From: Candidatus Phoenicimicrobium oleiphilum
Lineage (GTDB): Bacteria; Atribacterota; Phoenicimicrobiia; Phoenicimicrobiales; Phoenicimicrobiaceae
Direction: 5' to 3'
NCBI GenBank assembly: GCA_039638295.1
Contig: JBDIWJ010000005.1
Location: forward strand, 416 to 64,415
DNA: 64,000 bases
Under the pieces are notes generated by a model. The model was not told the DNA's origin. It did not search any database and saw nothing but the letters and a program-made list of their open reading frames with translations. The translations under genes and the position numbers were made by a program. Of this stretch, positions 1-63,618 are shown one piece after another. Within the stretch, counting starts at the first letter, position 1. Each line of letters starts with the position of its first letter.

Positions 1-234
1 TAAAGTTTTTCTGATTTAACCGGTTCTAACATAATAAATCTATCCTCATTTTATGGGTCTTATTATCAAAATACATCTATAATTTCAAATTTCAATTAAT
101 GTTAAAGTGGTAAATTGGCTAAGTGGCGATATCAATTATAAGTTTATTGATTATATTATACAATATAAATTTAAAAAATCCTTTTTTTTTTTTTTTTTAA
201 AATTTTTCATATTTTTCAAATAGATATAAAGCAA

Positions 235-5955: not shown

Positions 5956-6043
5956 TAAAATTCCTCCGTTTTATATTATATAATAATTATTCGACAAAAC
6001 TTTTTAAATTCCTCTTTTTTTTACCTATTTTTTCAATTTTTTA

Positions 6044-7348
6044 TCAAACTTTAGCTATTGCCTTCTCTAACACCTCTAAGGCCTCATCCAACTGCTCATC
6101 AGTAATCTCTAAAGAGACCAACATTCTCAAAACATTCTTGTTAATCCCTGCGCCAGCAATAAGTACTCCATTTTTTACACATTCCTGTATAACTTGAGCT
6201 GTCTCTTGGGTGGCTGGTTCTTTAGTCTTTCGGTCTTTTACCAGTTCTATAGCCATCATCGCCCCTATACCACGCACATCACCTACTATAGAATATCTAT
6301 CTTTCATCTTAAGAAAACGCTCTTTCAATCTTTCCCCAATCTTCAAGGCTCTTTCTAAGAGTTGTTCTTCTTCGATAATTTTTATCACCTCCAGGGCTGC
6401 CCGGCAGGCTAATGGATTACCTACATAGGTTCCACCAATACACCCGCCAGGAAGGGTATCGGTAATCTCTTTTTTGGTAATTACTGCCGAAAGAGGAAGG
6501 CCAGAAGCTAAAGACTTGCCCAGACAGATAAGGTCTGGCTCTATATTCCAGTTTTCTATGGCATAAAACTTTCCAGTCCGACCTATACCACTCTGAATCT
6601 CATCGGTGATAAGTAACATACCGTATTTCTCGGTCAATTCTCTTAAATATTCTAAAAATCCCTCCTGAGGGACATTAAATCCTCCTTCTCCCTGGATAGG
6701 TTCAACCACTATAGCAGCGACAGAGTCAGGGATTACAGTATTTACCAGTATCTTTTCAAAATCTTCTATATCAGCCATAGGATGAGAAGAACTGGGGAAA
6801 GGTAAGCGATATATCTCGGGGGCAAAGGGTCCGAAGTGGTATTTATAAGGCATAGCCTTGTGGGTCATAGTCATAGTAAGCAAAGTGCGACCATGGAAGG
6901 CATTTTCGAAGACAATAATAGCTGGTCTTTTGGTATGTGCCCTGGCAATCTTTACCGCATTTTCTATTGCCTCTGCTCCGGAGTTAAAAAAGGCGGCTGA
7001 CTTGGGAGTGCTCCCGGGGGCCAACTTAACTAATTTTTCAGCCAGTTCTACCAGAGGCTCGTAAGGGACAGCAGTAAAATCGGTATGCAGATATTTTTCT
7101 GCCTGGTCTTTAATAGCAGCTACCACTTTCTTGTGGGTATGGCCTACGGCCAGACATCCCCAGCCTCCAGTAAGATCGATTAATTGATTACCATCTACGT
7201 CAGTGACTAAAGCCCCCTCTCCATAGGCAATATAACAGGGGGAAAGAGAACCGCTCATAGGTTTGGCTACATACTTTTCTCTTTTTTTAGCAATTTCTTG
7301 AGATTTTGTTCCAGGTAGACTGGTTTTAAGAGAAATAAATTTACTCAT
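6044..7348 (-). CDS. Class-III PLP-dependent aminotransferase (GabT/acetylornithine/DABA aminotransferase family)
   Basis: Motifs ITDEIQSGIGRTGKFYA and LICLGKSLASGLPLSAV (PLP-lysine region) typical of class-III aminotransferases. Confidence 0.8.
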   Translation of the reverse strand: MSKFISLKTSLPGTKSQEIAKKREKYVAKPMSGSLSPCYIAYGEGALVTDVDGNQLIDLTGGWGCLAVGHTHKKVVAAIKDQAEKYLHTDFTAVPYEPLVELAEKLVKLAPGSTPKSAAFFNSGAEAIENAVKIARAHTKRPAIIVFENAFHGRTLLTMTMTHKAMPYKYHFGPFAPEIYRLPFPSSSHPMADIEDFEKILVNTVIPDSVAAIVVEPIQGEGGFNVPQEGFLEYLRELTEKYGMLLITDEIQSGIGRTGKFYAIENWNIEPDLICLGKSLASGLPLSAVITKKEITDTLPGGCIGGTYVGNPLACRAALEVIKIIEEEQLLERALKIGERLKERFLKMKDRYSIVGDVRGIGAMMAIELVKDRKTKEPATQETAQVIQECVKNGVLIAGAGINKNVLRMLVSLEITDEQLDEALEVLEKAIAKV

Positions 7349-7556
7349 TTAATCATTCTCCTTTAATCTAAATTTTTAATTAGTTAATAGTAAATAATCG
7401 CTGGTCGTTAGTTTAAAAATCAAAACTTTTTTCGTATAAATTATTGCTTTTTTACTCCATTTCGATTTTATATAAATCTTTTCCTGACAATCTTGTTAGA
7501 ATAAATATACTGTCTTTTAAACTTGTGCCCGTGAAAACGGGTAAAAGTATCCTTGT

Positions 7557-7591
7557 AAGAGCATCGGAATTTTAGAAATTCCGATGCTCTT
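7557..7591. terminator. 35-nt perfect palindrome (16-bp stem) 20 nt downstream of the stop of the 7613-8857 gene; intercistronic terminator/attenuator or protein-binding site
   Basis: AAGAGCATCGGAATTT-TAG-AAATTCCGATGCTCTT read directly; no clean U-tract on the mRNA strand. Confidence 0.4.
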
Positions 7592-7612
7592 AAATTATCT
7601 TTTAGTACCTTA

Positions 7613-8857: not shown

Positions 8858-9099
8858 ATATTTTTCCTCCTTCTTTGGTTATTTAGTTATTAAAACAGTC
8901 GATAGTGAATAGTCGTTAGTCGTTAGTTTAAAACTCAAAACTTTTTCGTATAAGATATTGCTCTTAAAGTAGGGGTCGGATTTATTCGACCTGTTTTTAT
9001 TGCGGGTTCGATTAATGAGCACTTACGATAACAGGAAATTCCTATACCATTTAGTTAACTAGCTATCTTTAAGATGACATTTGCTAATAAAAAATCTAC

Positions 9100-9365: not shown

Positions 9366-9485
9366 AATACAAGTAAATATTAATTTGTGAAACTTATTTT
9401 AGTAGACTTAAATTCTTAAATTACCACCTCCTCATTTAATCTACCAATTATACAATTGACCAATTTACCAATCAAATTAATGTAA

Positions 9486-10622
9486 TCACACTTTAATTAT
9501 ATTTTCTTTATAGAACACATTTCTTTTTTCTAATTCTTTCATTACCCTCTGATATACTTTATGTTCCCTGCCTATATATTCTGGAGGAGAAATCCCTTTA
9601 CGGGAATATTCTCCCTGAGCTACCAGGCGAGCCATAATTGCACAGGGAAAACCAGTCGTACGTGACATAGAGGTAGCTTCCTCATTCTCGTCATAATAAT
9701 CTAATAAATCATAGATATAACATAGTCTTTTTTCTTCTTTCTTACCTTGAACAATTACCCTCATCACTGTTAACTCTCTTTCTCCTTCTTTTAATCCCCA
9801 TTTGGAAAAAAGCAATTTAGAGGCAACATCTATAGGGCTGACTTTTACCCCTCCTGCTTCTATAGGTTTTTCATTAAAAAATCCTGTCTCTCTTAACATC
9901 CGCATCTTTTCCGCATACCCTGGATAACGCAAGGTCTTCTCTCTCATAGAGGGAATTTTAATGGTGTAAAGTAGACTACGAAGTCCATCAGTATTAAAAG
10001 CTTCTAAAGTACCAATTCCTGGTAAATCAACCAATTCAAGATCAGAAAGCGCGGGTTTTTCTACAATTTTTCCGCATTCAATTAATCTTGCCGGTCTTAT
10101 ATATTCTTCTATAACATCTTTAGGAGACCAGGCAATTTTATATTCATAAGGCCATTCTCTTATTACTGGAAGCCCTCCTACTAAAATAGTAGCACTCTCG
10201 GTTTTATCCAACAGGCTATAGACATAACCTACAATCATATGACTCATCCCCGGAGCTACTCCCATATCCACCACAGCAGTTACTCCTCTACTTTTAGCAA
10301 GCCCATCCAGGCTTAAAGTATCTTCAGCCATAAATGATATATCAACTATGTTCTTACCAGCTTCAATAACCGACCGCAACATATTAAATCCTAAAAACCC
10401 TGGAACAGCACCAATTACAATATCTTGATCAGCAACTATCTTTTTAATATCACTCGAAACAGATAAATCTGCTTTTACACCTCTTATTCCTGCATCTTTT
10501 GTTAACTTATCCAATCTTTTTTCATCAATATCTGCTACAGTTACTTGAATATTTTTATCTTTTGCTAAATCTTTGGCAATTAATCCGCCTACCAAACCAC
10601 AACCCAGTACTATTGCTTTCAT
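9486..10622 (-). CDS. Saccharopine dehydrogenase-family NAD(P)-binding oxidoreductase (paralog 2)
   Basis: N-terminal MKAIVLGCGLVGGLIAKDLA Rossmann fold, 378 aa, same family as 7613-8857 but divergent. Confidence 0.7.
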   Translation of the reverse strand: MKAIVLGCGLVGGLIAKDLAKDKNIQVTVADIDEKRLDKLTKDAGIRGVKADLSVSSDIKKIVADQDIVIGAVPGFLGFNMLRSVIEAGKNIVDISFMAEDTLSLDGLAKSRGVTAVVDMGVAPGMSHMIVGYVYSLLDKTESATILVGGLPVIREWPYEYKIAWSPKDVIEEYIRPARLIECGKIVEKPALSDLELVDLPGIGTLEAFNTDGLRSLLYTIKIPSMREKTLRYPGYAEKMRMLRETGFFNEKPIEAGGVKVSPIDVASKLLFSKWGLKEGERELTVMRVIVQGKKEEKRLCYIYDLLDYYDENEEATSMSRTTGFPCAIMARLVAQGEYSRKGISPPEYIGREHKVYQRVMKELEKRNVFYKENIIKV

Positions 10623-10649
10623 ACTTTTATTGTTTCCTTTCCTTATTTT

Positions 10650-12023: not shown

Positions 12024-12255
12024 TTTTTCACCTTCCTTTTAATTTGGTTAGTTGATTACCTAGTTACCTGGTTCGCTAGTTAACCGGTCTTCTAGTCATT
12101 TCAGTCGTTAACCTCTACTGTATAGGTTTGAATTTATTCGACCAAAATTATTTGGTAATCTTTTTAGCGGGCTCGATGAATCGAGCCCCTACTTCTGGCT
12201 TCTGGATCTTTAACTCGTAACCTGTAATTTATAACCCATTACTTATTACTCATTA

Positions 12256-13383
12256 CTAATTACTTTGTATTTTTCTGGCTACTTCCCTGGCTACATCTAA
12301 AGTTGAGGCTGTTCCGCCTAAATCATAGGTCCTGACTTTTCCTTCCTCAATGACCTGAGCAATAGCATTTTCTAATCTTTGAGCCAATTCTTTTTCCCTT
12401 AAGTAATCCAACATTAATTTAACTGTTAAAAGCATGGCCATAGGATTTACTTTATACTGCCCTGCATACTTAGGAGCAGAGCCATGAGTAGGCTCAAAGA
12501 CGGCATAGTCATCACCAATGTTAGCACTAGAGGCAAAACCTAAACCTCCTACCAATTGTGCACATAAGTCAGAAATTATATCGCCGAACATATTAGAAGA
12601 AACCAAGACACTATAATTTTGAGGGTTCTTAACCAACCACATACACATTGCATCTACATTGGTTTCCCACAATTCAATCCCGGGATATTCTTGAGCAATC
12701 TTACGAGCTTCTCTTATCATTAATCCACTGGTTTCTCTGATTACATTAGGTTTTTCCACAACTGTAACTGAATTCCTTTTAAACTTCTTAGCATATTCGA
12801 AGGCTTGTCGAACAATTGATTGGCAAGCTTTTCTGGTAAAAATTCGGCAGGATAGAGCAATATCTTCTAAAGGAGTATCTTTGAATCTTTTCATTTTAGG
12901 ATGATTTTTTAAAAGAGAATCCATTACTTCTTTAGGTAGAGGATGAAATTCTATCCCACTGTATAACCCTTCGGTATTTTCTCGAAAAACTACCAAATCT
13001 ATATCGTCTCTATAATTCAAAGGATTTCCTTTGTAGGCTTTGCAGGGTCTCAGGTTAGTATGTAACTTAAATTCCTGGCGTAATCTTACAATAGGGCTCG
13101 AATAGACATAACCCTTTCCTTTAACTTCAGGAGCAAGTTCCTTTTCTGCTTCCTCTTTAGGTTTAGAGGTTATTGCTCCAAAGAGACAACAATCAGTTTC
13201 TTTAAGAATTTTTATGGTCCTATCAGGTAAAGGGTTTCCTTCTTTTTTCCAAAATTTCCAACCAACATCGCCGGGTATATAATCAGCATCCAGTTTTAGC
13301 ACATCTAATACGATCTTCGCTGCCTCCATTACATCATTTCCGATTCCATCACCCGGCAGCCAGGCTATCTTATATTTTGCCAT
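12256..13383 (-). CDS. Isocitrate/isopropylmalate dehydrogenase-family enzyme (LeuB/homoisocitrate DH-like)
   Basis: N-terminal IAWLPGDGIGNDV, 375 aa beta-decarboxylating dehydrogenase fold. Confidence 0.8.
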   Translation of the reverse strand: MAKYKIAWLPGDGIGNDVMEAAKIVLDVLKLDADYIPGDVGWKFWKKEGNPLPDRTIKILKETDCCLFGAITSKPKEEAEKELAPEVKGKGYVYSSPIVRLRQEFKLHTNLRPCKAYKGNPLNYRDDIDLVVFRENTEGLYSGIEFHPLPKEVMDSLLKNHPKMKRFKDTPLEDIALSCRIFTRKACQSIVRQAFEYAKKFKRNSVTVVEKPNVIRETSGLMIREARKIAQEYPGIELWETNVDAMCMWLVKNPQNYSVLVSSNMFGDIISDLCAQLVGGLGFASSANIGDDYAVFEPTHGSAPKYAGQYKVNPMAMLLTVKLMLDYLREKELAQRLENAIAQVIEEGKVRTYDLGGTASTLDVAREVARKIQSN

Positions 13384-13386
13384 TTT

Positions 13387-13890: not shown

Positions 13891-15146
13891 TTTAAATCCC
13901 CCCTTATATCAGTAATTTCACCGTAAAGGGAAGAGATAGCGACGGTTGCCGGACTAGCTAAGTAAACTTCTGCCTCTTTACAGCCCATCCTTCCTTTAAA
14001 ATTTCTATTAGCTGTACTCAAGCAAACTTCTCCCGGAGCTAAGGCCCCTTCGTGAGCTCCTAAACAAGGGCCACATCCCGGATTCATTATTACTGCCCCA
14101 CTTTTAACTAATTCCTGAAGGATTCCTAATTCCATCGCCCGGGCAAAGACCTCCATCGAGGCCGGAAAGACTAAAAGTCTAACTCCGTTAGAAATCTTTT
14201 TACCACGAAGAATCTCGCTGGTAATTTTTAAATCTTCTATCCTTCCGTTGGTACAGGTCCCAATTAATGCTTGGTTAATCTTGGTCCCTGCCACTTCCGA
14301 AACAGGTTTTACATTGTCTACTGTGTGAGGGCAGGCAATTTGAGGTTCTAAACTACTTATATCGTAATCTATGATTTTTTCATACTCAGCATCAGTATCT
14401 GACTTTATTATTTCGTATTTTTTATTGGTTCTTGCGGTAAGCCACTGTATGGTTTTTTCATCCGGTTCTACATAGCCGATCTTTGCTCCCATCTCCACCG
14501 CCATATTGCATAGAGTCATCCTGCCCCCGATATCCATATCCCTAATTACTTTTCCGCTAAATTCTACTGCCCTATACAATGCTCCATCCGCACCTAAATC
14601 CCCAATAATGTGGAGGATTATGTCCTTGGGATATATTCCGGGGGGAATTTCCCCTTTAATATTTATTTTAATAGTCTCCGGCACTCTAAGCCAGATTTCA
14701 TCTGTAGCCCATATAGAAGCTACTTCACTTCTGCCAATCCCAGTTGAAAAAGCACCAAATGCTCCATAAGTAGTGGTATGTGAGTCGGCTCCTAAAATTA
14801 AAGTCCCTGGAAGTACATAACCCTTTTCCGGTAAAACCTGATGGCAGACTCCGGTATTAATATCATAAAAATTTTCAATTTTCTGTTCCTGGATAAATTC
14901 TCTTATCTCTTTATGATTAGTAGCATATTTCTCTGTTGCTGCCGGAACACAATGATCTAGAGGTATTACTATTTTTTCAGGATGTTTTACCTTATCAATT
15001 CCAATCTGATTGAATTTTTTGGCTATAGCAGCAGTATTATCGTGAGACATTACTATATCCGGAGATACAGTTACAATTTCTCCAGCAATTACACTTCCCT
15101 TACCCGATTTAAGAGCTAATATTTTCTCTGCAAAGGTTTTTCCCAT
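13887..15146 (-). CDS. 3-isopropylmalate dehydratase/homoaconitase large subunit, short (archaeal-type, ~420 aa) LeuC-like
   Basis: Aconitase-family Cys ligand region (GTCTNGR...GCGPCLG), 419 aa. Confidence 0.8.
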
Positions 15147-15160
15147 TTTTACCCTTCTCC

Positions 15161-15691
15161 TTATCTAAATTGTTCGAAGTTAGTAAAATCAGCATGATGA
15201 ACAATAATGGCTTCCGGGATTCTCTTAGAACGATCTCCTTCCCAGGAATGAGAGGCAATAATATGCATTACTTCTTCCGGAATTCCTTGACTGTAACAAA
15301 GACCTACTCCGGATATAGGATGACGTACCAGCTTCCCCAAATTACTCTGAATAAATTTTCCGTTCTTCTCTTTATATTCTACTAACTTCCCAATATCGTG
15401 AAGCAATGCCCCGGCAATAAGATAATCCTCATTTATTTTCACTTTATCTTCATAGATGCTTTGAAGAGCTTTCGCCGCCCCTATCGAAACATTTACTACT
15501 CCCCTAATATGTTCAATCATACTACAAGGACAGGGATCAATTAATAAAGTAAAAGGCATTCTCTGCAGGTCACTCACTTTCCATCCCCCAGCAGCAAGAG
15601 CAATCTCCCAAACTTTCAAAACCTTTTCCTTCAAATCTGAATCTTTGATTAAATTAAATTCCGGAATAAATTTTAATAAATCATCTCTCAT
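15161..15691 (-). CDS. HD-domain phosphohydrolase
   Basis: HD motif (LLHDIGK ... HHAD) in 176-aa protein. Confidence 0.65.
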   Translation of the reverse strand: MRDDLLKFIPEFNLIKDSDLKEKVLKVWEIALAAGGWKVSDLQRMPFTLLIDPCPCSMIEHIRGVVNVSIGAAKALQSIYEDKVKINEDYLIAGALLHDIGKLVEYKEKNGKFIQSNLGKLVRHPISGVGLCYSQGIPEEVMHIIASHSWEGDRSKRIPEAIIVHHADFTNFEQFR

Positions 15692-15702
15692 CTTTTCCCT
15701 CC

Positions 15703-16032
15703 TTATTCCTCGTAAGGTATTTTGATCTCCAAAAGTGGAGCGTGTTGTTGAGCACCATAAACATCAGTCTCCCCGATGCTGCCTGAATCTACTGGCCTTA
15801 CAATAGTTGCTTTTATAGCATTAGCGGGGTCAAATTCTACAAAATAAAGAACTTTTTCGATGGGAACATGGTAAAGTTTGGCAATAAGTTCTTTGGTAAT
15901 TACTTTGGTTTTCTTGACTTTTTCGTAAGTTTCCTTGTCTTTAAAAATTATATCAAAGGTCAACTCAAAGGGGCCAGCATTTTTACTTCTGATTACGCTT
16001 GCTAAGTCTATAATAGAAACCTCTTTAGTCAT
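15703..16032 (-). CDS. Small DUF4387-like protein (partner of AtuA-like DUF1446 proteins)
   Basis: 109 aa, directly downstream of and co-oriented with a DUF1446-like gene; assignment by recalled family pairing. Confidence 0.4.
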   Translation of the reverse strand: MTKEVSIIDLASVIRSKNAGPFELTFDIIFKDKETYEKVKKTKVITKELIAKLYHVPIEKVLYFVEFDPANAIKATIVRPVDSGSIGETDVYGAQQHAPLLEIKIPYEE

Positions 16033-16065
16033 TTATATACTCTCCTTTTTAAATTCCTTATTATT

Positions 16066-17424
16066 TTAAAATTCCACTATTTCTATAGAAAAAAGTTCAT
16101 CAGGGTTATCGACTTCTACTAAGTGATGAATATTAAATTTATATACCGCTCCGGTAGGTATATCTGAAGGAGCATAAGGAAAAGCTAAATTACCGGCAGT
16201 AGCAACGCGCCCCCTGTAAGAATAATGCATTAAAGTAGAACGAGCAAAAGCACAAATAGTATTGGCCAGCTCCTGGTCTTTAGCCACAACTTCCAGGATC
16301 AGACAAAGTTCATGAGAGGCAATCTCTTTTCGAGGCTCTAATTCTCCCATCACTCCGTTCTTCCCATAAATATGGAAGATTAATTGGTAATCTTCCGGAG
16401 AAATATCATTAAAGTAAGTAAGTACGGTATTACGGACATGTTTTTCACATTCATCAATCTGTTTAATCATAATAGGATCTCTTACGCCAGCAATACATAT
16501 AGTCCGATAAGCCACTTTGCTGGCACCTTCAAGTTTTATATTAATGGCTTCACTCTTATTTAGTTTAGAACCCGATACCTTTACCGCTCTTTCGCTATAC
16601 TGTTCGAATTTACATCCGCTAACATCAACCATCCCTTCCGGACCAATAATATGTAACGGGCTGGATTTTTCATAAAGAGTGTGAGCAGCTACTGTGCTGG
16701 GGATACATTTTCGCAGGGCATTAGTAGGTTCTACTATAAAACAATCCTCTCTTAAATATGCCATCATACAATCAGAGGTAGTCCCGGGAGTGGAAGCCAT
16801 AGCTCCACATTCTAAAATTTTTCCCATATGCAAAGCCAGTCCGGGGTTATATCCTTCCTTAATGGGAAGAGCGGCAAACATAGCCGGATCATTGGAACGA
16901 CCGGCAATAATAACCTCCGCCCCCATCTCTAAGGCTTTTATATAAGAGTGCACTCCCATTACCGCCACAATTCGAGTAGCTTCTTCTATATCTTTAGAAG
17001 TTAAGTCGGGGACGGGACCTAAGGGTTTTATCTTTCCTTGAGCTAACTTCTTTTGAAGATAATCTTTTTCAACTTCTGCATGAATTAAAGCCATCTTAAA
17101 GTGTAGATTTTTTTCTTTAGCAATTTCTTTTACTATTTCTAAAGTCCAATTAAGATGGACTTCTGCACCAGAACCTCCAGCAGAACCGATAATAACCGGG
17201 ATTTTATGTTCGCAACCCGCTGTTAACATTAAAGTAAGGTCTTTTTTGGTTGCTTCTTTGCTTACAATACCCACTCCTGCTCCTAATTTATGGGGGCCGG
17301 CATCAGTGGAGCCGGCATCAGCAGCAATAACATGAGGTTTCTTTTCTAAACCCTTTTGAAAAGATTCTGCCGGGAAACCATATCCTAACATCCCTACCGG
17401 TGATAGAACTCTTATCTCTTTCAT
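16066..17424 (-). CDS. AtuA-like DUF1446 family protein
   Basis: 452 aa, N-terminal PVGMLGYGF...AADAGSTD pattern recalled for acyclic-terpene-utilisation AtuA/DUF1446 family. Confidence 0.5.
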   Translation of the reverse strand: MKEIRVLSPVGMLGYGFPAESFQKGLEKKPHVIAADAGSTDAGPHKLGAGVGIVSKEATKKDLTLMLTAGCEHKIPVIIGSAGGSGAEVHLNWTLEIVKEIAKEKNLHFKMALIHAEVEKDYLQKKLAQGKIKPLGPVPDLTSKDIEEATRIVAVMGVHSYIKALEMGAEVIIAGRSNDPAMFAALPIKEGYNPGLALHMGKILECGAMASTPGTTSDCMMAYLREDCFIVEPTNALRKCIPSTVAAHTLYEKSSPLHIIGPEGMVDVSGCKFEQYSERAVKVSGSKLNKSEAINIKLEGASKVAYRTICIAGVRDPIMIKQIDECEKHVRNTVLTYFNDISPEDYQLIFHIYGKNGVMGELEPRKEIASHELCLILEVVAKDQELANTICAFARSTLMHYSYRGRVATAGNLAFPYAPSDIPTGAVYKFNIHHLVEVDNPDELFSIEIVEF

Positions 17425-17504
17425 AATATATATCTCCTCACTTCTACAAGATTGTCAGGGGAGTGAGCTCCCCTCCCATTCTTAATACATTTTTCAATCT
17501 AATT

Positions 17505-18263
17505 TTATATCTTACCCAAAACTTCTCTTATGTTTCTTAAATGTTTTAGCATAGCTTCTCCAGCTTTTTTAGCATTATGTTCTTTGATGGCCTGTAATAT
17601 TGCCTGATGTTCTTGATATTGTTTTTCTCGTCTTCCTGGTATTTGCCAGGTCTTTCCTCGAGTCTCTTTTAATAGGTCTAAATGTAATTTTATTATATTT
17701 ACAAAGACAAAATTATGAGAAGCGCTGGCAATAGCTAAATGAAATTCGGTATCTGATTCTGTTTCTTTGCCATATTTTAATTCTTCTTCTTCTTCGTTTA
17801 TTTTATTTAAAGCCTTTTCAATTAATTCTATATCCTCGATAGTGGCTTTCTGAGCAGCAATTTTAGCAATTTTAACCTCAAATACCTCTCTTGCCTCTAA
17901 AAGTTCTAAAATGGAAGATTTTTTTAAACTTGAGATAATATTTTCTGTACTGTCGTGGCCATTTTCCCTTATCTCTCGAATAAATCTTCCTCCGCCCGGT
18001 TTGCTTTTAATTAAACCTCTTGATTCTAAAACTCGGAAGGCTTCCCTTAGAGATCCTCTACTTATAGACAATTTTTCAGCTATTTCTCTCTCTGGAGGAA
18101 GTTTATCACCTGGTTTTAATTTATTATTTTTTACCAAATCCATAATTTGCTCTATTACACTTTCATATAAACGAACAGGAGTAATTTCTTTAAATTCCAT
18201 ATTTTCCTCTCTTTGGGTAATTGGGTAACTGGTCGACCCACTTTTATATTCATTATATAACAT
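17505..18263 (-). CDS. GntR-family (FadR/FCD subfamily) transcriptional regulator; true start probably internal Met (MEFKEI..., ~18200)
   Basis: wHTH EREIAEKLSISRGSLREAFRVLESRGLI plus C-terminal all-helical FCD-like domain. Confidence 0.8.
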   Translation of the reverse strand: MLYNEYKSGSTSYPITQREENMEFKEITPVRLYESVIEQIMDLVKNNKLKPGDKLPPEREIAEKLSISRGSLREAFRVLESRGLIKSKPGGGRFIREIRENGHDSTENIISSLKKSSILELLEAREVFEVKIAKIAAQKATIEDIELIEKALNKINEEEEELKYGKETESDTEFHLAIASASHNFVFVNIIKLHLDLLKETRGKTWQIPGRREKQYQEHQAILQAIKEHNAKKAGEAMLKHLRNIREVLGKI

Positions 18264-18269
18264 AAATTT

Positions 18270-18322
18270 AAAAAATCAATCTTTTTCTGAAAAAAATTTT
18301 AAAAATATTTTCGGAAGTAATA
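18270..18322 (-). promoter_or_regulatory. Sigma-70-type promoter with AT-rich UP element for the GntR gene (TTGATT-17-ATAATG)
   Basis: Minus strand TTGATTTTTTAAATTTATGTTATATAATG upstream of ATG at 18263; nearly identical UP/-35 block recurs at 24862-24915 upstream of the IclR gene (TTGATT-17-ATAATA). Confidence 0.45.
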
Positions 18323-18561
18323 CCATAAATATGATGTAAGAATAAAGATGTGAGAATAAAATTGAAGATAAACAGTTAGTTTATACAAGATTATGCATAT
18401 AGTGTGCTGTAGACAATTTTATAGTAAATTATAATTCTTGTTATAATTGAATTGTAGGGGCACAATGAATTGTGCCCCCTGTTTCATCGTTTTTCATTTA
18501 TATTGTGGGAACAAGGAATCGTACCCTTATATTAACATTTTGTTTTCCGTTTAGATTACAT

Positions 18562-20400
18562 TCATGCATCTAAAAACTTAAAAGGTGAAATTATATCTTC
18601 TCCAAATTTTGCTCTGGTTTCTTTTAACCTTTCAGTCTGTGCTTCTAATTCTTTAGTAAAGGCGGTAGGCATCTTAATATTTTTAAATATCTTGTTCATC
18701 CTTTCCATCTTCTCTATGTATTTTGTCACTCTTAAGGAGAACTGCTGAATATATTCGTCCATAGTGTAATCTTTGTCCAGCTCACTGATAAATAAACTTT
18801 TTAAATCTTCATATTTGGGTATTCGGCCTACCGGAGTTTCGATGGCTTCAAATTCGTGGTGCACTCTCCCTTCAGCCCAGAGTACCCAGACTTTCTTATC
18901 AAGTTTACCGTTCAGGTAATTACCAGACTCATCTTTTAAGAAATAATTGGTAGCATAAATTTTGGGGACCTCTTTGAGGCCATCGGCAAATTTCAGGTGA
19001 TTCTCTATGTAGGTATTAAACGGTACCGAGATAAAGTCAAGATTGGCCATCGGGTTATGTTTCCTTATCCCCTGGGCACCGATAGTAGCAGAGGTAGTCT
19101 CTGATTCTACGGTAGCCCCAAGAAAGACTCCTTGGAACCAACTGAGAGATTCTACTATTGGCATAGTGGTATCAGAATCTCTTCCTCCATAGATAATGGC
19201 CTGCACAGGTACACCTGCCGGGTCATCAGCCTTGGGGTCAATATTTTCTAAGGCATTTAGTCTTATGGTGTATCTGGCATTTTTATGGGAACAATCGATA
19301 ACATTACCTTTCTTATCTTTTTTACCTTTATACCACTCTCCTGAATGATTAATGCCTTTATCCGGTATATCTTTACCCATACCCAACCAATAAGGGACAC
19401 CATCATTAACAAGTACATTAGAAAAAATAAGTTCTCTCGGAGTGGTTAGGGCTTTATATATCAAGGGATCATCCTGGGGATTTACATCCTGAATGATACC
19501 AAATATACCATTTTCCACATTTACTGCTTTTATTATCCCGTTAATTTTTTTGAGGTAGGCGATATCATCACCAACTACGGTCTGCCCAGGAATCATGGCA
19601 GTGCTGGTCTTCCCACAGGCACTGGGGAAGGCACCAGTAAAATAGGTAATACGGCCTTTTGGACCATGGACACCCATTATAAACATATGCTCAGCTAACC
19701 ACCCTTCTTCATTGGCCTTCTTGATAGCTAATCGGAAGGCTAACTTTTTTAGTCCCAGAGAGTTACCAGCATATTGATTATTCACTGAATAGACCTTATT
19801 CTCTTCCAGGTCGATGTAGATCCTCCGTTTATCTATATCTTTACTCACACCATTTTCTAATCTTCCCGCTGAATGAAGAAAGAAAAAGAAATCAGGAGAT
19901 CCATCAAGTTTTTTAAATTGTTCATAGGCTGGCCGATAGAGGATATCTTCACTATGGGCGACATAAGCCGAATCAGTAATCTGTAAGGCTAAAATCGAGA
20001 ACATAGAATTAGTAGGACCAAGAGAAAAGAACCTTACTAACATCTCTTTCCCAGCCATACTTCCGTCAAGAAGAGAATATATTTCTTTTAGGCCTTTATC
20101 TTTTTCTATCGAATTTACCTTTATCCCCCAATCTACATCTTTAGATAATAAATATCTGGTATTGGCTTTATCTCTGGCCTGATCATAATAACCATCAAAG
20201 TGAATGGTATGTCCTCCCATCTTTAACTTCTTTTCTTCACCATTGATTAAAGCCAATTCTCTTACATAGGTAATATCTTCTTTTGAGTCAGTTATCACAG
20301 TTACCTTTTCCGGTTTACAGAGCTGGATGGCCTCTTGAACCACCTTTGTAACATATTGATTATTTAGTTCTTCTAACTTCCGTAAATAATTTTTATCCAT
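18562..20400 (-). CDS. pckG: Phosphoenolpyruvate carboxykinase (GTP)
   Basis: GTP-PEPCK kinase-1a motif GAFPSACGKTSTAM, 612 aa. Confidence 0.9.
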   Translation of the reverse strand: MDKNYLRKLEELNNQYVTKVVQEAIQLCKPEKVTVITDSKEDITYVRELALINGEEKKLKMGGHTIHFDGYYDQARDKANTRYLLSKDVDWGIKVNSIEKDKGLKEIYSLLDGSMAGKEMLVRFFSLGPTNSMFSILALQITDSAYVAHSEDILYRPAYEQFKKLDGSPDFFFFLHSAGRLENGVSKDIDKRRIYIDLEENKVYSVNNQYAGNSLGLKKLAFRLAIKKANEEGWLAEHMFIMGVHGPKGRITYFTGAFPSACGKTSTAMIPGQTVVGDDIAYLKKINGIIKAVNVENGIFGIIQDVNPQDDPLIYKALTTPRELIFSNVLVNDGVPYWLGMGKDIPDKGINHSGEWYKGKKDKKGNVIDCSHKNARYTIRLNALENIDPKADDPAGVPVQAIIYGGRDSDTTMPIVESLSWFQGVFLGATVESETTSATIGAQGIRKHNPMANLDFISVPFNTYIENHLKFADGLKEVPKIYATNYFLKDESGNYLNGKLDKKVWVLWAEGRVHHEFEAIETPVGRIPKYEDLKSLFISELDKDYTMDEYIQQFSLRVTKYIEKMERMNKIFKNIKMPTAFTKELEAQTERLKETRAKFGEDIISPFKFLDA

Positions 20401-21836: not shown

Positions 21837-21999
21837 ATTTTATCCTCCGCATCGTTACTTTTCAACATTCCAGTTTATATTATGCCTAATATCTCTTGGG
21901 GGCACGATGCATTGTGTCTCTACACTACTGTTTTATTTACATTATAAGTTATAATTATATTATAGCTTAATACTGCTTCGTGGAAAAATTATTATTGGA

Positions 22000-24784: not shown

Positions 24785-24989
24785 TTATTCCTTATTATTT
24801 TTGTTCCGTAATGTAGAATGCTGTTCCATTTTATAACCCTAATTATATTATATATTATTATAATACATAATATTAAAAAATCAATCTTTTTAAAAAAATT
24901 TTAAAATTTTTGTATTTTTTTTATTAAAGTACGTTAAATCATTAACAATTGTAGGCTTTCAAAATGAATTTATTTTTCTAATTAAAAAA

Positions 24990-27863: not shown

Positions 27864-27960
27864 TTGAGATTGCTTCCCCTATTTTCGCAGGGGCAGGCTT
27901 GCTTTGCTCCACGCAATGACACTTGGTGTTATGTCATTGTGAGGGTTAGCGAAGCAATCT
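27864..27960. repeat. Nested-palindrome intergenic element (outer 11-bp IR GAGATTGCTTC/GAAGCAATCTC; inner hairpins CCCCT..AGGGG and CAATGACA..TGTCATTG)
   Basis: Inverted repeats read directly; shares TGTCATTG...GAAGCAATCTC with element at 39033-39104. Confidence 0.5.
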
Positions 27961-28000
27961 CAAAACTATCCTACCTTAGTTAACTTAGCAGTAGTTATTT

Positions 28001-30425: not shown

Positions 30426-30714
30426 TTCCTATAGACATATTCTTTCGTCCCATCAAGTCTCGTTCGCAACTAAACGGGCGTATGCAATACGCCCCTACTT
30501 CTGGATTCTGGCTACTGACTTCTATTTCTTTCATTCTTTACTATATACTAATTATCTTATCCGCTATAGTATATACTAATGACTATTCACTATTCGCTAA
30601 TGACTAAATTGACGGGGCAAATATCTAACCGGTAAACTACTATGTAAGCCAATTGGTAAATTGGTAGATTGGCGAATTGGTCAATTTATTTTTCTTTTTT
30701 CGATTCGAAAGTAA

Positions 30715-30939
30715 TTATATTCTATAAATATTTTCATATTCAACTTTCCCATCTTGTAGAATTTTTTCTATCTTTGACTTATCTTCATTATTAAACCGTA
30801 AACAGATACCACAATCAGAACTTAAGTGTCGAGGAACCGGAATGAGTTTTATTTTTAAATTTTCTTTTTTGGTTAAACTTTCCGCTCTTATCGCAGCACT
30901 GTTAGAATAAAATATTACCACACTAAAATTATCCTTCAT
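30715..30939 (-). CDS. DUF3343 family small protein (putative Se/S carrier-like)
   Basis: 74 aa with conserved Cys in SSDCGICL context; sits next to EF2568-type cysteine desulfurase. Confidence 0.5.
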   Translation of the reverse strand: MKDNFSVVIFYSNSAAIRAESLTKKENLKIKLIPVPRHLSSDCGICLRFNNEDKSKIEKILQDGKVEYENIYRI

Positions 30940-39032: not shown

Positions 39033-39104
39033 GTCATTGCGAACGAAGTGATGAAGCAATCTCAATTCCGAGATTGCCACGCTCCCTACGGTCGTTCGCA
39101 ATGA
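39033..39104. repeat. Nested-palindrome intergenic element (outer 13-bp IR GTCATTGCGAACG/CGTTCGCAATGAC; inner hairpin GCAATCTC-AATTCC-GAGATTGC)
   Basis: Read directly; related to element at 27864-27960. Confidence 0.5.
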
Positions 39105-39158
39105 CTTTATAGACAGGCTCTATGAAAACAATGAACGCCTGTCCTACAGAATTTGAAT

Positions 39159-39635
39159 TTATTTTGATCTTTGATTTTCTACAGCTACTGCATAAATGGC
39201 ATCAACAATCTTTTTATATCCAGTACACCTGCATAGATTTCCAGATATCGCTTTTTTAATTTCCTCTCTATTAGGAATAGGATTTTGGTCAAGATAATTT
39301 TTTGCAGTAATTATCATTCCTGGTGTACAAAAGCCACATTGTATTGCCCCATAATTTACAAAACTTTTCTGGAGTTTCCTGCCAAGTTCAAATTTTTCCA
39401 TACCCTTAACAGTCCATACTTCTTTATGATTAGCTTGAAGAGCTAAGGTGATGCAGGATTTAACGGCTTTCTCATTTAGAATAACTGTGCAAGTACCACA
39501 CTCCCCTTTTTCACAGCCACATTTCACCTCGGTAAAACCATTTCGACGTAAAAATTTTAATAGAGATTCTTCTGCTTTGGCAGTCGTACTTATTTTCTCA
39601 CCATTTACGGTTAAATCTATTTTATATTCTTCCAT
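39159..39635 (-). CDS. (2Fe-2S)-binding small subunit of molybdenum hydroxylase 1
   Basis: CGCEKGECGTCTV plant-type and CGFCTPG second 2Fe-2S motifs, 158 aa. Confidence 0.85.
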   Translation of the reverse strand: MEEYKIDLTVNGEKISTTAKAEESLLKFLRRNGFTEVKCGCEKGECGTCTVILNEKAVKSCITLALQANHKEVWTVKGMEKFELGRKLQKSFVNYGAIQCGFCTPGMIITAKNYLDQNPIPNREEIKKAISGNLCRCTGYKKIVDAIYAVAVENQRSK

Positions 39636-39755
39636 CTACACTCTCCTTTTTAGTAAGTAATAAGTAATGGGCGATGAGTGATAAGTAATTAGTAACAAGT
39701 AATAAGTTATATGCAATTCGTGTATCGACTAATTGGTTAATTATTTTCTCTCCTA

Positions 39756-40631
39756 TTAATTGGTAAATTGGTGAATCGATGAATCGGCTAATTTTTTAAA
39801 GGCCCGTTTGAATAAGAGCCCGGAGATATATCGGCGATATTCTTCAGATGCTCGAATATCACTAATAGGTTTAACTTCTTCGCGCACTCTATCTATAGCC
39901 TCTTCAACCAATTTATCATTTATTTCTTTATTTTTTAAAAAACTCTCTGCACCAGTCAATCTTACGGGCGTAGGAGCTACAGAGCCAGCAGCAATCCGAA
40001 TTTGATTAATTTTATTTTGTCTAACTTCTAAATTTACTGCTACCGTTGCAATGGAAATAGCCATCGCTTTCCTCTGTCCTATTTTAATAAAATAGCCATT
40101 TTTATTTACATCACTTTGTTCAAATTCGATTCCCACAATCATTTCATCATCCTGCAAGATTGTTTCACCTGGGCCCACAAAAAAATCTTTTAGCTTAACT
40201 TCTCTCTTATCTCTAGTGCTCTCTATTTTTATAAGAGCATCAAGAGTTAAAAGTGGTATGGCTATATCAGCTGCAGGTGAAGCAGTTACTAAATTTCCAC
40301 CTATAGTGGCAGTGTTCCTTACCAGTGGGTCAGCAAATTCTTGGGCAGCTTGGGTTAATACCTTATACTCTTTTGATGTAATATCTGAATAAATCAATTC
40401 ATTAATAGTAGTGAGGGGACCTAAGAATATTTTATCTTCTTTTTGGTAAATACCCTTTAATTGTTCGATATTAGTAATATCTATTAAAACCTTAGCTTTT
40501 ATTTCTTTATCCCTTATATTGGGTAAAACATTGGAACAACCTGCAACTATACAAGCATTAGACTTCTCTTTTTGTAAAATTTCTAAAACTTCATCTTTTG
40601 TCTTAGGAGAAATATATTTAAATAGGCTCAT
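39756..40631 (-). CDS. FAD-binding (CO-dehydrogenase-flavoprotein-like) medium subunit of molybdenum hydroxylase 1
   Basis: FAD_binding_5 N-terminus (AGCSNVLP) plus CO_deh_flav_C, 291 aa. Confidence 0.8.
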   Translation of the reverse strand: MSLFKYISPKTKDEVLEILQKEKSNACIVAGCSNVLPNIRDKEIKAKVLIDITNIEQLKGIYQKEDKIFLGPLTTINELIYSDITSKEYKVLTQAAQEFADPLVRNTATIGGNLVTASPAADIAIPLLTLDALIKIESTRDKREVKLKDFFVGPGETILQDDEMIVGIEFEQSDVNKNGYFIKIGQRKAMAISIATVAVNLEVRQNKINQIRIAAGSVAPTPVRLTGAESFLKNKEINDKLVEEAIDRVREEVKPISDIRASEEYRRYISGLLFKRAFKKLADSSIHQFTN

Positions 40632-40726
40632 TTTCCCCTCCTTTTATTTGGTCAATCCTTTAATTGTTTTCTCATACTATTTAGTTGATCGGTTTCTTGT
40701 ATTAATTATATTAATTGGTAAATTGG

Positions 40727-41203
40727 CTAATCGCTTTTTTGTTCTGCTACGCAAGACTTAATCGCCTTTACTATTTGCACATATCCGGTACAACGACAAA
40801 GATTTCCTCTCATATAATCCCTGATCTCGTTTTCGGTAGCATTAGGATTTTCTTTTAATAATGCCGTGGCAGTTAATATCATTCCCGGCGTACAAAAACC
40901 ACATTGCACAGCTCCATTCTCTAAAAACGCTTTCTGCACGGGATGTAGTTCATCACCCTTTGCCAGTCCTTCAATAGTGGTAATTTCTTTACCATTAACA
41001 GTTACCGCTAAAGTAAGACAAGATAAAACTGGTTCACCATCCAACAAAACGGTACAGGCTCCACATTCCCCAATACCACAACCATATTTACTCCCGGTTA
41101 GATATAAATCATTTCTTATTATATTAATTAAAAGGTCATTTGGTTTTACAAAAATCCTTCTCTTTTTACCATTAACGATAAACTCTATCTCTATTTTTTT
41201 CAT
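40727..41203 (-). CDS. (2Fe-2S)-binding small subunit of molybdenum hydroxylase 2
   Basis: CGIGECGACTV and CGFCTPG motifs, 158 aa. Confidence 0.85.
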   Translation of the reverse strand: MKKIEIEFIVNGKKRRIFVKPNDLLINIIRNDLYLTGSKYGCGIGECGACTVLLDGEPVLSCLTLAVTVNGKEITTIEGLAKGDELHPVQKAFLENGAVQCGFCTPGMILTATALLKENPNATENEIRDYMRGNLCRCTGYVQIVKAIKSCVAEQKSD

Positions 41204-50021: not shown

Positions 50022-50282
50022 TTTCCTTATTGCCTCCTTTTTTAAATTTTAACCATTTTTAAAAAACTATTATTTTAAATAAGCATCCACCTCCTTAACA
50101 AAGTTATCTATTTTTGGTATATTCATTATATTTTAAAAAAATATTCTGGTCAAGAAGGGTGTTTGTAGGGGTATGGCGCATCGTGTCCCTACTTCTGACT
50201 CCTGGCTTCTGGATTCCGATTCCTTCTTTTATAACTAAACGTTAAATGCTAAATGCCATAAATTCCTTGTTAGATGTATTTA

Positions 50283-61291: not shown

Positions 61292-61306
61292 GGATTTAAA
61301 TAAATT

Positions 61307-61583
61307 TTATATAAGATAGTAAGTCTGAAAGCCTTTTTTTATAAGGGTTTTGGAGGTAGATTGCGAAATAATGCGTATAAGAAAAAATTTTTGCCTTTGC
61401 CATACTTTATCCCTCGAAAATTACCTTTTTTTAACCAATTTTTTCATACTCTCAAATGCTGAAAGTGGCTATTTATAAGGGGTTTTAAGATTTTAGAGGA
61501 GTAAAAATACCTCAAAATCAGGGTAGTTAAATAGCTACACTTTTCTAAATTTAAACGCTAAAAAAGGCACTTTACGTGTGGTT
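61307..61583. repeat. Copy 1 of a ~277-bp direct repeat (ends ...GGCACTTTACGTGTGGTT); internally contains two CTGAAAG-N-TTTATAAGGGTTTT sub-repeats
   Basis: ~88% identical to 63343-63618 by eye alignment. Confidence 0.7.
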
Positions 61584-63141: not shown

Positions 63142-63342
63142 TCCCTTGCTTTTACAAAACTACGGCATTATGCTTTATTGCCGTAGATTTGTATATTTCT
63201 TTCCTTATTATACTTCTCTTCTCTATTTTTTCAAGTATGCATCTAATATTTTAAATATATTTTTATAGGAAGCATCAAGCGACCCCATAATTTAACATTA
63301 ATAAAATTATAATATAAATAAGCTTTTTGGCAGGGATAAACT

Positions 63343-63618
63343 TTATATAAGATAGTAAGTCTGAAAGCCTTATTTTATAAGGGTTTTAGGGACAGATTGC
63401 GAGATTTTGTTTATATGAAGAAATTTTTACCCTGGCTATAGTTTATCCCTCGAAAATTGCTCTTTTTTAACCAATTTTTTCACCCTTCTAAATACTGAAA
63501 GTGGCTATTTATAAGGGTTTTAAGATTTTATAGGAGTAAAAATACCCCAAAATTAGGGTAGTTAAATGGCTAATTTTTCGAAAATTTAAACGCTAAAAAA
63601 GGCACTTTCCGTGTGGTT
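63343..63618. repeat. Copy 2 of the ~277-bp direct repeat
   Basis: Aligned to 61307-61583. Confidence 0.7.

Follow-up and report, generated by a model that had tools for sequence, protein, structure and literature searches.

What fills the gene junctions of an Atribacterota genome with short units that recur in a register of exactly seven or eight nucleotides? The question is raised by a 64,000-nucleotide (nt) stretch of Candidatus Phoenicimicrobium oleiphilum (GenBank assembly GCA_039638295.1, contig JBDIWJ010000005.1), which was analysed over its full length and is called the window here. It is posed most clearly by the focal spacer, a 120-nt interval inside a two-copy molybdenum-hydroxylase gene cluster, where the gene for the flavin adenine dinucleotide (FAD)-binding subunit (39756..40631) is followed by the gene for the 2Fe-2S subunit (39159..39635). 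An initial annotation, made from the letters alone, had described phased micro-repeats in many spacers of the window, had offered a reiterated protein-binding site or a slippage-generated spacer class as explanations, and had held that no element of this kind was described. We show here that the arrays are real, that they enlarge junctions which were compact ancestrally, and that beside a start codon they nearly always lie in one orientation.

All long open reading frames (ORFs) of the window are on the minus strand, and its GC content is ~36%. A protein named as coming from a 'Candidatus Atribacteria bacterium' matches the FAD-binding subunit beside the focal spacer at 100% identity, and for a PrpD-family protein encoded in the window the best matches (81-92%) come from metagenome-assembled genomes of Atribacterota. 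Since nothing like a terminator lies between the FAD and 2Fe-2S genes on their sense strand, the focal spacer is probably co-transcribed with its neighbours.

Arrays of period 7 and 8 in the window

Periodicity was tested on the 31 intergenic spacers of the window by scanning for local repeat segments (+1/-1 scoring, threshold 10), with 300 dinucleotide-preserving shuffles as control. Only periods 7 and 8 are enriched, with 10 segments of period 7 and 7 segments of period 8 against 0.96 and 0.89 in the shuffles, and neither count was matched by any shuffle (0/300). In the same scan periods 4-6, 10, 12, 13 and 15 are at chance level, and periods 9 and 11 are slightly raised owing to AT-rich low-complexity tracts. 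When autocorrelation is pooled over the spacers, period 7 (z 3.8) and period 8 (z 3.2) stand out, together with their harmonics 14 and 16; a z of 3.7 at period 3 was traced to small unlisted ORFs within the spacers. Pattern searches against dinucleotide shuffles agree with the scan, and Atribacterota DNA totalling 270 kb has 1.80 arrays/kb outside coding sequence against 0.10/kb within it, an 18-fold difference. Thus the phasing is real and non-random. The initial annotation had itself named a comparison with shuffled sequence as the result that could overturn it; this came out for enrichment, and the shuffle controls rule out chance in AT-rich DNA.

Tandem Repeats Finder recovers the focal heptamers at 39654-39711 (period 7, 8.3 copies, 74% matches, no indels) and the focal octamers at 39758-39776 (period 8). 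Further arrays, again without indels, are found at 8910-8927, 9453-9472, 12056-12082, 12238-12265, 30575-30607, 30651-30686 and 50235-50256, and the units are degenerate throughout, with 73-92% matches. Parts of the original description have to be narrowed accordingly. Arrays are present in about one third of the window spacers and not in most of them. In the focal spacer the heptamers stand, whereas the octamers are limited to 39756-39790, the stretch 39725-39757 being non-periodic with a single solitary unit inside. Most of the other sites listed at the time are recovered as well, except that 7381-7412 and 40690-40740 are under the periodicity threshold, yet homologous to the arrays at 8.9 kb and 39.77 kb (74% and 92% identity), and that 100-127 and 50236-50256 are weak, with ~3 units each. 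The statement that arrays occur both 3' of stop codons and between the cistrons of the molybdenum-hydroxylase operon needs no change.

Within the focal spacer (Table 1), the heptamer array stops 15 nt before the start of the 2Fe-2S gene at 39635 and abuts its Shine-Dalgarno (SD) sequence, AAAAAGGAGAG. On the plus strand 39651-39711 reads TAGTAAGTAATAAGTAATGGGCGATGAGTGATAAGTAATTAGTAACAAGTAATAAGTTATA. The array holds 2 G and 14 C in 61 nt and is unstructured, at a minimum free energy (MFE) of -0.2 kcal/mol. At the other end of the spacer lie the octamers (plus strand of 39756-39790: TTAATTGGTAAATTGGTGAATCGATGAATCGGC), which encode the C-terminus ...ADSSIHQFTN* of the FAD subunit. The linker between both arrays is homologous to sequence in L212 and L209, where labels of the form L### denote related contigs or loci that were compared with the window. 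An independent repeat finder aligned the octamers at 40709-40733 with 39754-39778 at 92% identity.

The arrays draw on a few unit families that are met again at junctions not linked to each other, in either orientation and often beside hairpins that start with GTAG or as the two arms of palindromic inserts. On the sense strand of the window these are AGTAATN with its complement NATTACT (12.2 kb, 39.65 kb), the octamer family ACCAATTN with the form NACCAATT and its complement AATTGGTN (39.77 kb, 40.7 kb, 30.67 kb and 0.1 kb vs 9.45 kb), the octamers AACYAGNT/AACCAGGT (12.05 kb), the heptamers AACGACT/ATTCACT (8.9 kb, 7.4 kb) with the complement TAGTSRW (30.58 kb), CCAGAAG heptamers (12.2 kb, 30.5 kb, 50.2 kb) and GCATTTA heptamers (50.24 kb). 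The repeat finder ties the array loci together, some as direct and some as inverted copies. Heptamers at 12238-12265, for example, are 89% complementary to those at 39683-39710, the 12.2 kb array being the reverse complement of the 39.65 kb family.

Compact junctions enlarged by repeat modules

Orthologous junctions were collected from ~20 related contigs, and at the focal junction the DNA was compared across nine related contigs. Ancestrally the junctions are compact, and their stop codon directly adjoins the SD or overlaps it; the same junction has been enlarged by 50-300 nt in different lineages through presence/absence insertions of modules built from 7- or 8-nt units. The focal junction measures 11 nt in L207, 63-133 nt in the window, L208, L210, L212 and L213, and 220 nt in L214 and L215. 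L207 is the closest relative at this junction (91% protein identity) and reads AAATTGACCAAT TAA GGAGGCTTTAGATG (ACCAAT TAA GGAGG); the 11 nt are counted from stop codon to SD, these two being in direct contact, and a single TTGACCAAT serves as the seed. In L209, TTGACCAA TTCACCAA TTCACCAA TCGACCGA follow in frame, then ~3 NATTACT units, and L210 has octamers behind an earlier stop codon plus 7 heptamers, so that the heptamer counts are 3 (L209), 7 (L210) and 9 (window). Other relatives hold other modules at the same place: a reversed GTAG hairpin and 5 heptamers in L213, AACTAGGT/AACCAACT octamers in place of the heptamers in L212 and L208, and TAGTGAA heptamers after the stop codon with CTATACG heptamers before the SD in L211, L214 and L215. 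In all cases the array abuts the SD, and the conserved block GGAGGCTTTAGATGGAAGAATATA comes next.

Arrays vary by whole units and can arise from a seed at the 3' end of a gene; by extending into the gene they provide it with another C-terminal tail and another stop codon. The FAD subunit has 282-284 residues in most homologues, which end in ...FKRAFxKLTN*, whereas that of the window and some others have 291 residues and end in ...KLTD SPIH QLTN*, with an 8-residue tail (KLADSSIHQFTN*). The 8 extra residues correspond to 24 nt, that is, to three octamers in frame, and other lineages have tails of +4 or +15 residues at the same point.

The junction between the isocitrate/isopropylmalate-dehydrogenase-family gene and the PrpD-family gene (icd to prpD) is 19 nt long in L040 and in outgroups (Aerophobetes, Bipolaricaulota), and 65-296 nt in ten Atribacterota loci. 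Its filler is a mosaic of AGTAATN heptamers, of GGTTACA and CCAGAAG heptamers with a GTAG hairpin or, instead, TAGTTANN octamers, of AACGAAA heptamers, and of AACCAGGT octamers before the SD; compared with the window, L010 and L011 are longer by 14 nt of CCAGAAG units. At the aconitase-family junction the window shares a spacer of 12-14 nt (TAAGGAGG) with L010, L014 and L019, against 65-160 nt in five others, where two families are found: a AACTAGTT/AACCAACT array in L012 and L040, and a GTAATCA-type repeat in L008, L011 and L031. Finally, the 5' untranslated region (UTR) with the lysine riboswitch carries, ahead of the SD, AACGACT heptamers in L007 and L013 as in the window, AACTAACC octamers in L011 and L012, and neither of the two in L016.

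These indels of whole units between species (+24 nt, 3/7/9 heptamers, +14 nt), higher-order repeats of 14 nt and the growth of octamers in situ from an 8-nt seed fit the slippage-generated spacer class that had been put forward as one possibility. At 12.2 kb period 14 fits better than period 7 (92% vs 85% matches), which points to the duplication of two-unit blocks. Module turnover is fast, yet some copies are held far tighter than neutral sites. Between the window and its relatives 59-68% of 4-fold degenerate sites are identical; a 46-nt heptamer block at 8.9 kb is identical at 46/46 positions in L013 (4-fold sites 0.59) and at ~91% in L007, and a composite element of ~140 nt, of which this block forms part, has been kept in three species and also as a second copy.

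Orientation beside start codons and competing explanations

An array was counted as SD-proximal if it ends <=40 nt from a start codon. On the sense strand C exceeds G in 17 of the 19 SD-proximal arrays (binomial p 0.0007), the two exceptions being a purine-rich SD repeat and an A-rich tract; the 17 include ~10 independent junction-by-family cases. An array beside a start codon is thus nearly always G-poor and C-rich on the mRNA, opposite to ordinary leaders. Leaders with arrays have C 0.21 and G 0.08, as against C 0.11 and G 0.15 in 74 array-less leaders of the same loci, whose coding sense strands are G-rich. A genome-wide habit of G-poor leaders was therefore rejected as the cause, array-less leaders having G>C. 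Near stop codons the arrays prefer the G-containing orientation (14 vs 6), though not strictly. Stop codons in all three frames are present in only some arrays on the sense strand, and were discarded as a purpose of the arrays. Native arrays lack ATG and GTG in 10/10 cases and their reverse complements carry 0-5, which is a weak lead.

Two spacers of L213 that lie between minus-strand genes keep the rule relative to transcription. The island to which they belong (14000-18000) consists of small minus-strand genes (peptidase M15, DUF2922, DUF1659, sigma-70 r4), and its spacers at 15.6 kb and 16.0 kb each hold an inverted AGTAATN/NATTACT pair and the same hairpin, GCAATTAACCGGCAGGTTAATTGC, directly 5' of the SD.

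As RNA, SD-proximal arrays are nearly without self-structure (MFE 0 to -2.5 kcal/mol). The focal spacer has no inverted arms and folds worse than its shuffles (z +1.09), and the window spacers in general have no matching arms. In relatives, inverted arms are predicted to pair in the 15.6 kb spacer of L213 (30-bp stem, z -6.0), in L214 (z -2.5) and in L008 (z -2.4); the stem predicted in L012 is weak (z -1.45). The arms of L214 belong to a palindromic insert of 220 nt (10855-11084; also in L215 and L211) that separates the FAD gene from the 2Fe-2S gene. The insert has perfect 11-nt inverted termini, TTAATTAGTCG...CGACTAATTAA, and pairs lengthwise. In the predicted fold of L214 the stop codon and the SD meet at the base of one long helix.

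The explanation that we favour, and hold to be somewhat probable in its combined form, is that satellite-like DNA akin to the short tandemly repeated repetitive (STRR) sequences or long simple sequence repeats (LSSRs) of other bacteria has colonised co-transcribed gene junctions, with unit-wise slippage, a spread like that of repetitive extragenic palindromes (REPs), transcription, an orientation constraint and a standby role. We are much more confident of its descriptive core, a satellite of STRR/LSSR type, than of the functional step. The arrays would grow by slipped-strand mispairing or unequal recombination, and their families would spread between junctions by recombination or by mobilisation of the REP type or of the type of miniature inverted-repeat transposable elements (MITEs). 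As the arrays would be transcribed inside operons, only copies harmless to the expression of the downstream gene would survive. Beside the SD the single-stranded A/C/U-rich array would most likely act as a ribosome standby or S1-type landing platform, which could make up for the lost translational coupling between stop codon and SD. Where both arms exist, their pairing may fold the insert away and so rejoin the two.

Several points weigh against parts of this explanation. The focal spacer is 100% identical in six metagenome contigs, and among seven same-species copies from independent samples no copy-number variation was found there, so that slippage must be slow or not ongoing. Moreover, pure in-situ slippage does not account for the same unit families at unlinked junctions. 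The standby or landing-platform function of SD-proximal arrays is proposed from sequence. Many of the 19 SD-proximal arrays are orthologous and hence not independent. When the probability that the region from SD to AUG is unpaired was computed for the native and for the reverse-complemented array, no consistent direction was seen in 10 loci, and structure avoidance around the SD was dropped as a cause of the rule. Since ordinary leaders are not G-poor, the rule may reflect strand-specific insertion or the polarity of palindromes and not selection on mRNA. Furthermore, nearly all sampled genes are co-oriented, the exception being the small minus-strand island of L213, which confounds transcription with replication; a strand-specific DNA mechanism could therefore also produce the rule.

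Such a mechanism is part of the first alternative, according to which the arrays are arms or by-products of non-autonomous mobile elements, either MITEs or REPs moved by a REP-associated tyrosine transposase (RAYT), that arrived ready-made by strand-specific insertion and have no role in expression. This would suit the different families held by one junction in different lineages, the adjoining GTAG hairpins with CCAGAAG units in register with the GTAG tag, the interchange of hairpin sequences at one position, the inverted termini of the L214/L215/L211 insert, the composite at 2-3 window loci and the composition of array-bearing leaders, opposite to that of normal ones; in Geobacter, insertion sequence elements lie at fixed distances from similar arrays (PMC2700814). 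However, no transposase or RAYT gene turned up, though none was searched for, and no clear target-site duplication was found at the focal junction, including the L214/L215 insert. A candidate 7-nt duplication (AGGAGAG) at the focal insert was rejected, its upstream copy reading ACGAGAA in L209. Against it also speak the growth of the focal octamers in frame from a local seed, the whole-unit differences between homologous arrays and the conservation of some arrays well beyond the neutral rate. We consider this origin unlikely, although it is one of the two main rivals.

The orientation rule and the C-rich, G-poor, unstructured RNA beside the SD would also be expected if the arrays were reiterated mRNA sites bound by a protein specific for single-stranded RNA (ribosomal protein S1, one with a cold-shock domain covering 6-7 nt, Rho loading on C-rich, G-poor RNA, or another factor) that controls a global post-transcriptional regulon. 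The 8.9 kb array is conserved above neutral, and the same hypothesis has been raised for the TAACTGA repeats of Beggiatoaceae (PMC4679880) and for Nostoc heptamers (preprint). Against this, several unrelated units and two unit lengths replace one another at one site, and the array is absent from the focal junction of the closest relative; the genes associated with arrays have no common function, and stop-proximal copies lie in either orientation. Such a regulon, the second main rival, is in our view quite improbable.

Sites on double-stranded DNA for a global regulator or nucleoid protein, as proposed with IHF/HU for Geobacter, are more doubtful by far. Regular phasing and recurrence at many loci speak for them, and G. 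metallireducens offers a precedent as a hypothesis (PMC2700814). The arrays are situated inside operons between stop codon and SD and not at promoters, however, and an orientation bias relative to transcription is unexpected for such sites. In addition, a phase of 7/8 bp sets successive sites on different helix faces, and families are interchangeable and present or absent among relatives at 73-92% identity. The initial suggestion of a global DNA-binding regulator is made unlikely by the occurrence of both orientations, the replacement of families at one junction, the array-less close relatives and the intra-operon position.

Equally hard to sustain is the view that the purpose of the arrays is a long RNA stem, formed by inverted copies and used for processing, for stabilising the mRNA or for coupling: the arms do pair in L213, L214 and L008, but the L012 stem is not significant, and a partner arm is missing in the focal spacer and for most arrays of the window. 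Phase variation at hypermutable contingency loci, brought to mind by short tandem repeats near gene starts, is very unlikely, given degenerate units with 73-92% matches, identity at the focal spacer in six independent assemblies and in all seven copies, and housekeeping metabolic genes; chance is excluded by the shuffle controls.

Beyond the satellite explanation that we prefer, there is a slim chance that the interchangeable arrays represent a functional, orientation-dependent class of operon-junction leaders, namely single-stranded C-rich, G-poor platforms read by a factor of the ribosome or of termination (S1, Csp or Rho-like), installed by an array-plus-hairpin mobile mechanism and widespread in uncultured phyla. 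If true, this would amount to a general layer of post-transcriptional control and give heptamer-type repeats a function at last. The junctions form a natural allelic series, in which one junction is empty, lightly or heavily filled, with different families, in relatives at 73-92% protein identity. Together with the orientation rule and the rewritten C-termini this series makes the slippage, enhancer and mobile-element ideas specifically testable, and the finding would gain in interest if the orientation rule turns out to be RNA-level selection. It is also a warning for annotation, as repeat invasion shapes gene ends and spacers in such genomes.

Features of the window and relation to known repeats

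Table 1. Micro-repeat arrays and adjoining elements of the window, with units given on the sense strand (SD, Shine-Dalgarno sequence; UTR, untranslated region).
Feature	Position	Strand	Units or sequence	Context
Focal heptamer array	39651..39711	-	~8.5 units NATTACT (ACTTATT, ACTTGTT, ACTAATT ...)	
Focal non-periodic linker	39712..39755	-	one solitary AACCAATT; relic SD-like TAGGAGAG	TAGGAGAG right after stop codon
Focal octamer array	39756..39790	-	GATTCATC GATTCACC AATTTACC AATT + AA	last 11 codons and TAA stop of FAD subunit
Two-unit copy of focal octamer family	40709..40733	-		begins at stop codon of 2Fe-2S gene 40727..41203
Octamer array	30651..30690	-	ATTGACCA ATTCGCCA ATCTACCA ATTTACCA ATT	28 nt past stop of small ORF 30715..30939
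Heptamer array, AACGACT family	30565..30607	-	TAGTCAT TAGCGAA TAGTGAA TAGTCAT TAGTAT	G-containing orientation
CCAGAAG-type heptamers	30476..30523	-	AGAAGTC AGTAGCC AGAATCC AGAA	in register into GTAG-tagged hairpin GTAGGGGCGTATTGCATACGCCC (30476-30498)
Heptamer array	12192..12273	-	AGTAATT AGTAATG AGTAATA AGTAATG GGTTATA AATTACA GGTTACG AGTTAAA GATCCAG AAGCCAG	starts in final codons of isocitrate/isopropylmalate-dehydrogenase-family gene 12256..13383, giving its TAG stop
GTAG-tagged hairpin	12169..12192	-	GTAGGGGCTCGATTCATCGAGCCC	directly after CCAGAAG heptamers; other hairpin sequence in orthologous spacers
Octamer array	12044..12096	-	ACCGGTTA ACTAGCGA ACCAGGTA ACTAGGTA ATCAACTA ACCAA	20 nt before PrpD/MmgE-family gene start, directly 5' of SD AAAAGGAAGG
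Octamers of ACCAATTN family, opposite orientation	9445..9478	-	ATTGGTAA ATTGGTCA ATTGTATA ATTGG	13 nt past stop of gene 9486..10622, upstream of lysine riboswitch
Heptamer array	8897..8942	-	AACGACT AACGACT ATTCACT ATCGACT, preceded by GTTTTGA GTTTTAA	5' UTR, between lysine-riboswitch terminator and SD; 3' part of ~140-nt composite reaching ~9010
Degenerate second composite copy	7375..7451	-	heptamers AACGACC AGCGATT ATTTACT ATTAACT	upstream of aminotransferase gene 6044..7348
Weak octamer array, ACCAATTN family	100..150	-	GCCACTTA GCCAATTT ACCACTTT	
GCATTTA heptamers	50236-50262	-	~3 units	then CCAGAAG-type heptamers 50191-50216 and GTAG hairpin 50168-50192

GC hairpins that start with GTAG (GTAGGGGC...GCCCC) are found at 12169-12192(-), 30476-30498(-), 50168-50192(-), 21898-21923(-) and 18454-18479(+), and one more lies in the 29.9 kb spacer. 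In orthologous spacers the hairpin sequence at one position differs (GGGGCTCGATTCATCGAGCCC vs GGGGCGTATTGCATACGCCC). The composite element has the order GC hairpin, AATAAAAAC, hairpin GGTCGRATAAATCCGACC, TTATACGAAAAAGTTTTGAGTTTTAAAC and AACGACT heptamers, and is dispersed. It is located at 8897-9010(-), in part at 7375-7451(-) and 12100-12192(-), and in L013 (~12985-13110), L007 (~3190-3320) and L012 (~10080-10200). Conservation of the element reaches ~90-100% between species that agree at only ~60% of their 4-fold degenerate sites. Either a structured element of the 5' UTR or a mobile element of recent origin could be at hand.

The only Rfam match in the window is a lysine riboswitch at 9179-9358(-) with 111.5 bits, upstream of a saccharopine-dehydrogenase-family gene; Rfam 15 gave no match with E<=1 in 39550-39850 or 12000-12300, and no tRNA was found in the window. 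Promoter and terminator scans yielded counts at or below (<=) the shuffle expectation, except for terminator-like sites in 1-19000 (29 vs 14.7), and nothing informative inside the focal spacer. Long imperfect palindromes of 73 and 96 nt at 39033-39105 and 27866-27961 share GAGATTGC / GTCATTGCG motifs, and related pieces occur in spacers of L007, L013, L212 and L214. A conserved box with the sense-strand sequence TTGATTTTTTAAATTTATGTTATATAAT, a near-consensus -35/-10 promoter, precedes three operon starts and so has three copies (155-196, 18252-18293 and 24857-24898). At the AT-rich end of the window a direct repeat of ~290 nt (61300-61583 and 63336-63618, 85-89% identity, 2 kb apart) lies near small ORFs.

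Octamers with a CCAAT core point to a repeat class that is widespread and apparently uncharacterised. We scanned metagenome contigs for three exact occurrences of CCAAT in a row at 8-nt spacing. Among the matches listed, which lie among L087-L166 (for example L101, L119, L098, L118 and L153), arrays of 3-21 units are found in contigs of 28-67% GC. Several low-GC contigs among them repeat the module order of the window, and contigs of 62-67% GC hold (T/C)TACCAAT arrays. Some of the arrays listed are inverted pairs around a short centre, and one array lies directly before an SD and ATG. Near ORF starts the CCAAT strand is more often the sense strand, 30 vs 17 in the unfiltered matches listed, which is a weak bias, with ORF calls unreliable at high GC. 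Heptamer arrays were also seen in Anaerolineae loci, with the units GGACTGA, TGCAATY and an AGTCAGT inverted pair (L042 2231-2256 and 13336-13383; L080 9911-9984 and 13972-14028).

Heptamer arrays between genes have a history that goes back to 1990 and includes their use in strain typing, with their origin and function unsettled. The STRR heptanucleotide arrays of heterocystous cyanobacteria (Calothrix/Nostoc) reportedly go back to Mazel and colleagues in 1990, and Elhai and colleagues are said to have described, in 2008, small dispersed repeats (SDRs) of Nostoc, hairpins of unrelated sequence within heptamer arrays, to which the interchangeable hairpins seen here are similar. Like these STRRs, the arrays described here consist of tandem 7-nt units (which holds for the heptamers only, not for the octamers) in few dispersed intergenic families, here in 64 kb of window and ~220 kb of relatives; they are degenerate, occur in both orientations and lie near small GC hairpins. 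They differ in their Atribacterota host, in the 8-nt class alongside the 7-nt one, and in the compact empty sites and the SD orientation rule. The STRR1-3 consensus units CCCCAGT, TTGGTCA and CAACAGT have 0 tandem dimers in 281 kb of Atribacterota DNA, where no unit of the published repeats that were compared is tandem. Cyanobacterial STRRs have been used for fingerprinting (PMC5088731), the SDRs of Nostoc are cited in PMC3116915, and a Nostoc preprint reports that GAC(C/T)AAT and TTTTGAA heptamers affect expression, by a mechanism not established there.

Among LSSRs with units of 5-11 nt, those of seven nucleotides are the most abundant in many bacteria, and they have been ascribed to polymerase slippage (Mrazek et al. 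2007; cited in PMC4679880 and PMC4692102). Rehm et al. (PMC4692102) described GGGAATC repeats in Xanthomonas and mentioned Calothrix heptamers. As far as the class is presented in these citing papers, it shares with our arrays the over-representation of intergenic tandem repeats, the dominance of heptamers and the proposal of slippage; repeats of 1-11 nt units longer than chance are what the dinucleotide shuffles revealed here, and lengths change by whole units between species. Unlike LSSRs as presented there, our arrays are more degenerate and modular, with octamers equally prominent, and their recurrence at unlinked junctions needs more than local slippage.

Marine Beggiatoaceae, some cyanobacteria and Bacteroidetes have TAACTGA repeats shortly before their start codons (MacGregor 2015; PMC4679880). 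These vary between strains by indels in 7-nt steps, and a role in translation is suspected, with S1, Csp or CsrA proposed as binders. They resemble the arrays described here as heptamers of mainly one orientation, a few nt from start codons, with a TAAC core similar to AACTAACT/AACCAGNT units, and their forward orientation has an analogue in the G-poor strand of the 17/19 SD-proximal arrays. In Beggiatoa, however, the repeats overlap the expected ribosome-binding site and SDs are rare, whereas here canonical SDs lie downstream of the array, several families exist and there is an 8-nt period; TAACTGA has 46 single occurrences and 0 tandem dimers in the 281 kb of Atribacterota DNA.

A combination of 8-nt and 7-nt arrays in one genome, multicopy and intergenic, is also known from Geobacter metallireducens with its paired sites of a tandem octanucleotide (GTTGCTYN x4) and heptanucleotide (MTYCTGA x5) (Aklujkar et al. 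2009; PMC2700814). Those sites also occur between proB and proA, are often inverted pairs at variable distance, and are unique to one species of the genus. They differ from ours in unit sequences and GC content, and were read as IHF/HU-type sites, with no orientation or empty-site analysis reported. The hairpins beside our arrays, though not the micro-repeats, which are not palindromic, resemble the GTAG-tagged REPs defined by Di Nocera et al. 2013 (PMC3733652): they are stem-loops of 20-40 nt with an unpaired terminal GTAG, present as singletons in either orientation. Atribacterota are absent from the phyla listed in that study. CRISPR arrays are of another build, with repeats of 24-48 nt parted by unique spacers of about their own length, whereas the 7-8 nt units here stand head to tail without spacers.

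A search of a literature library, in which the few near matches were judged by title, found no paper on such repeats in Atribacterota. The kind as such has been described, with heptamers known from cyanobacteria (STRR), as LSSRs, from Beggiatoaceae (TAACTGA) and from Xanthomonas, and paired octamers and heptamers from Geobacter metallireducens, so the claim that no such element was known was wrong. With our data Atribacterota join the phyla that show the phenomenon, which now also includes an 8-nt class, seemingly common in metagenomes. What is new is the phylum, the unit sequences, the prominent 8-nt class, and the combination of empty and filled junctions with an orientation rule.

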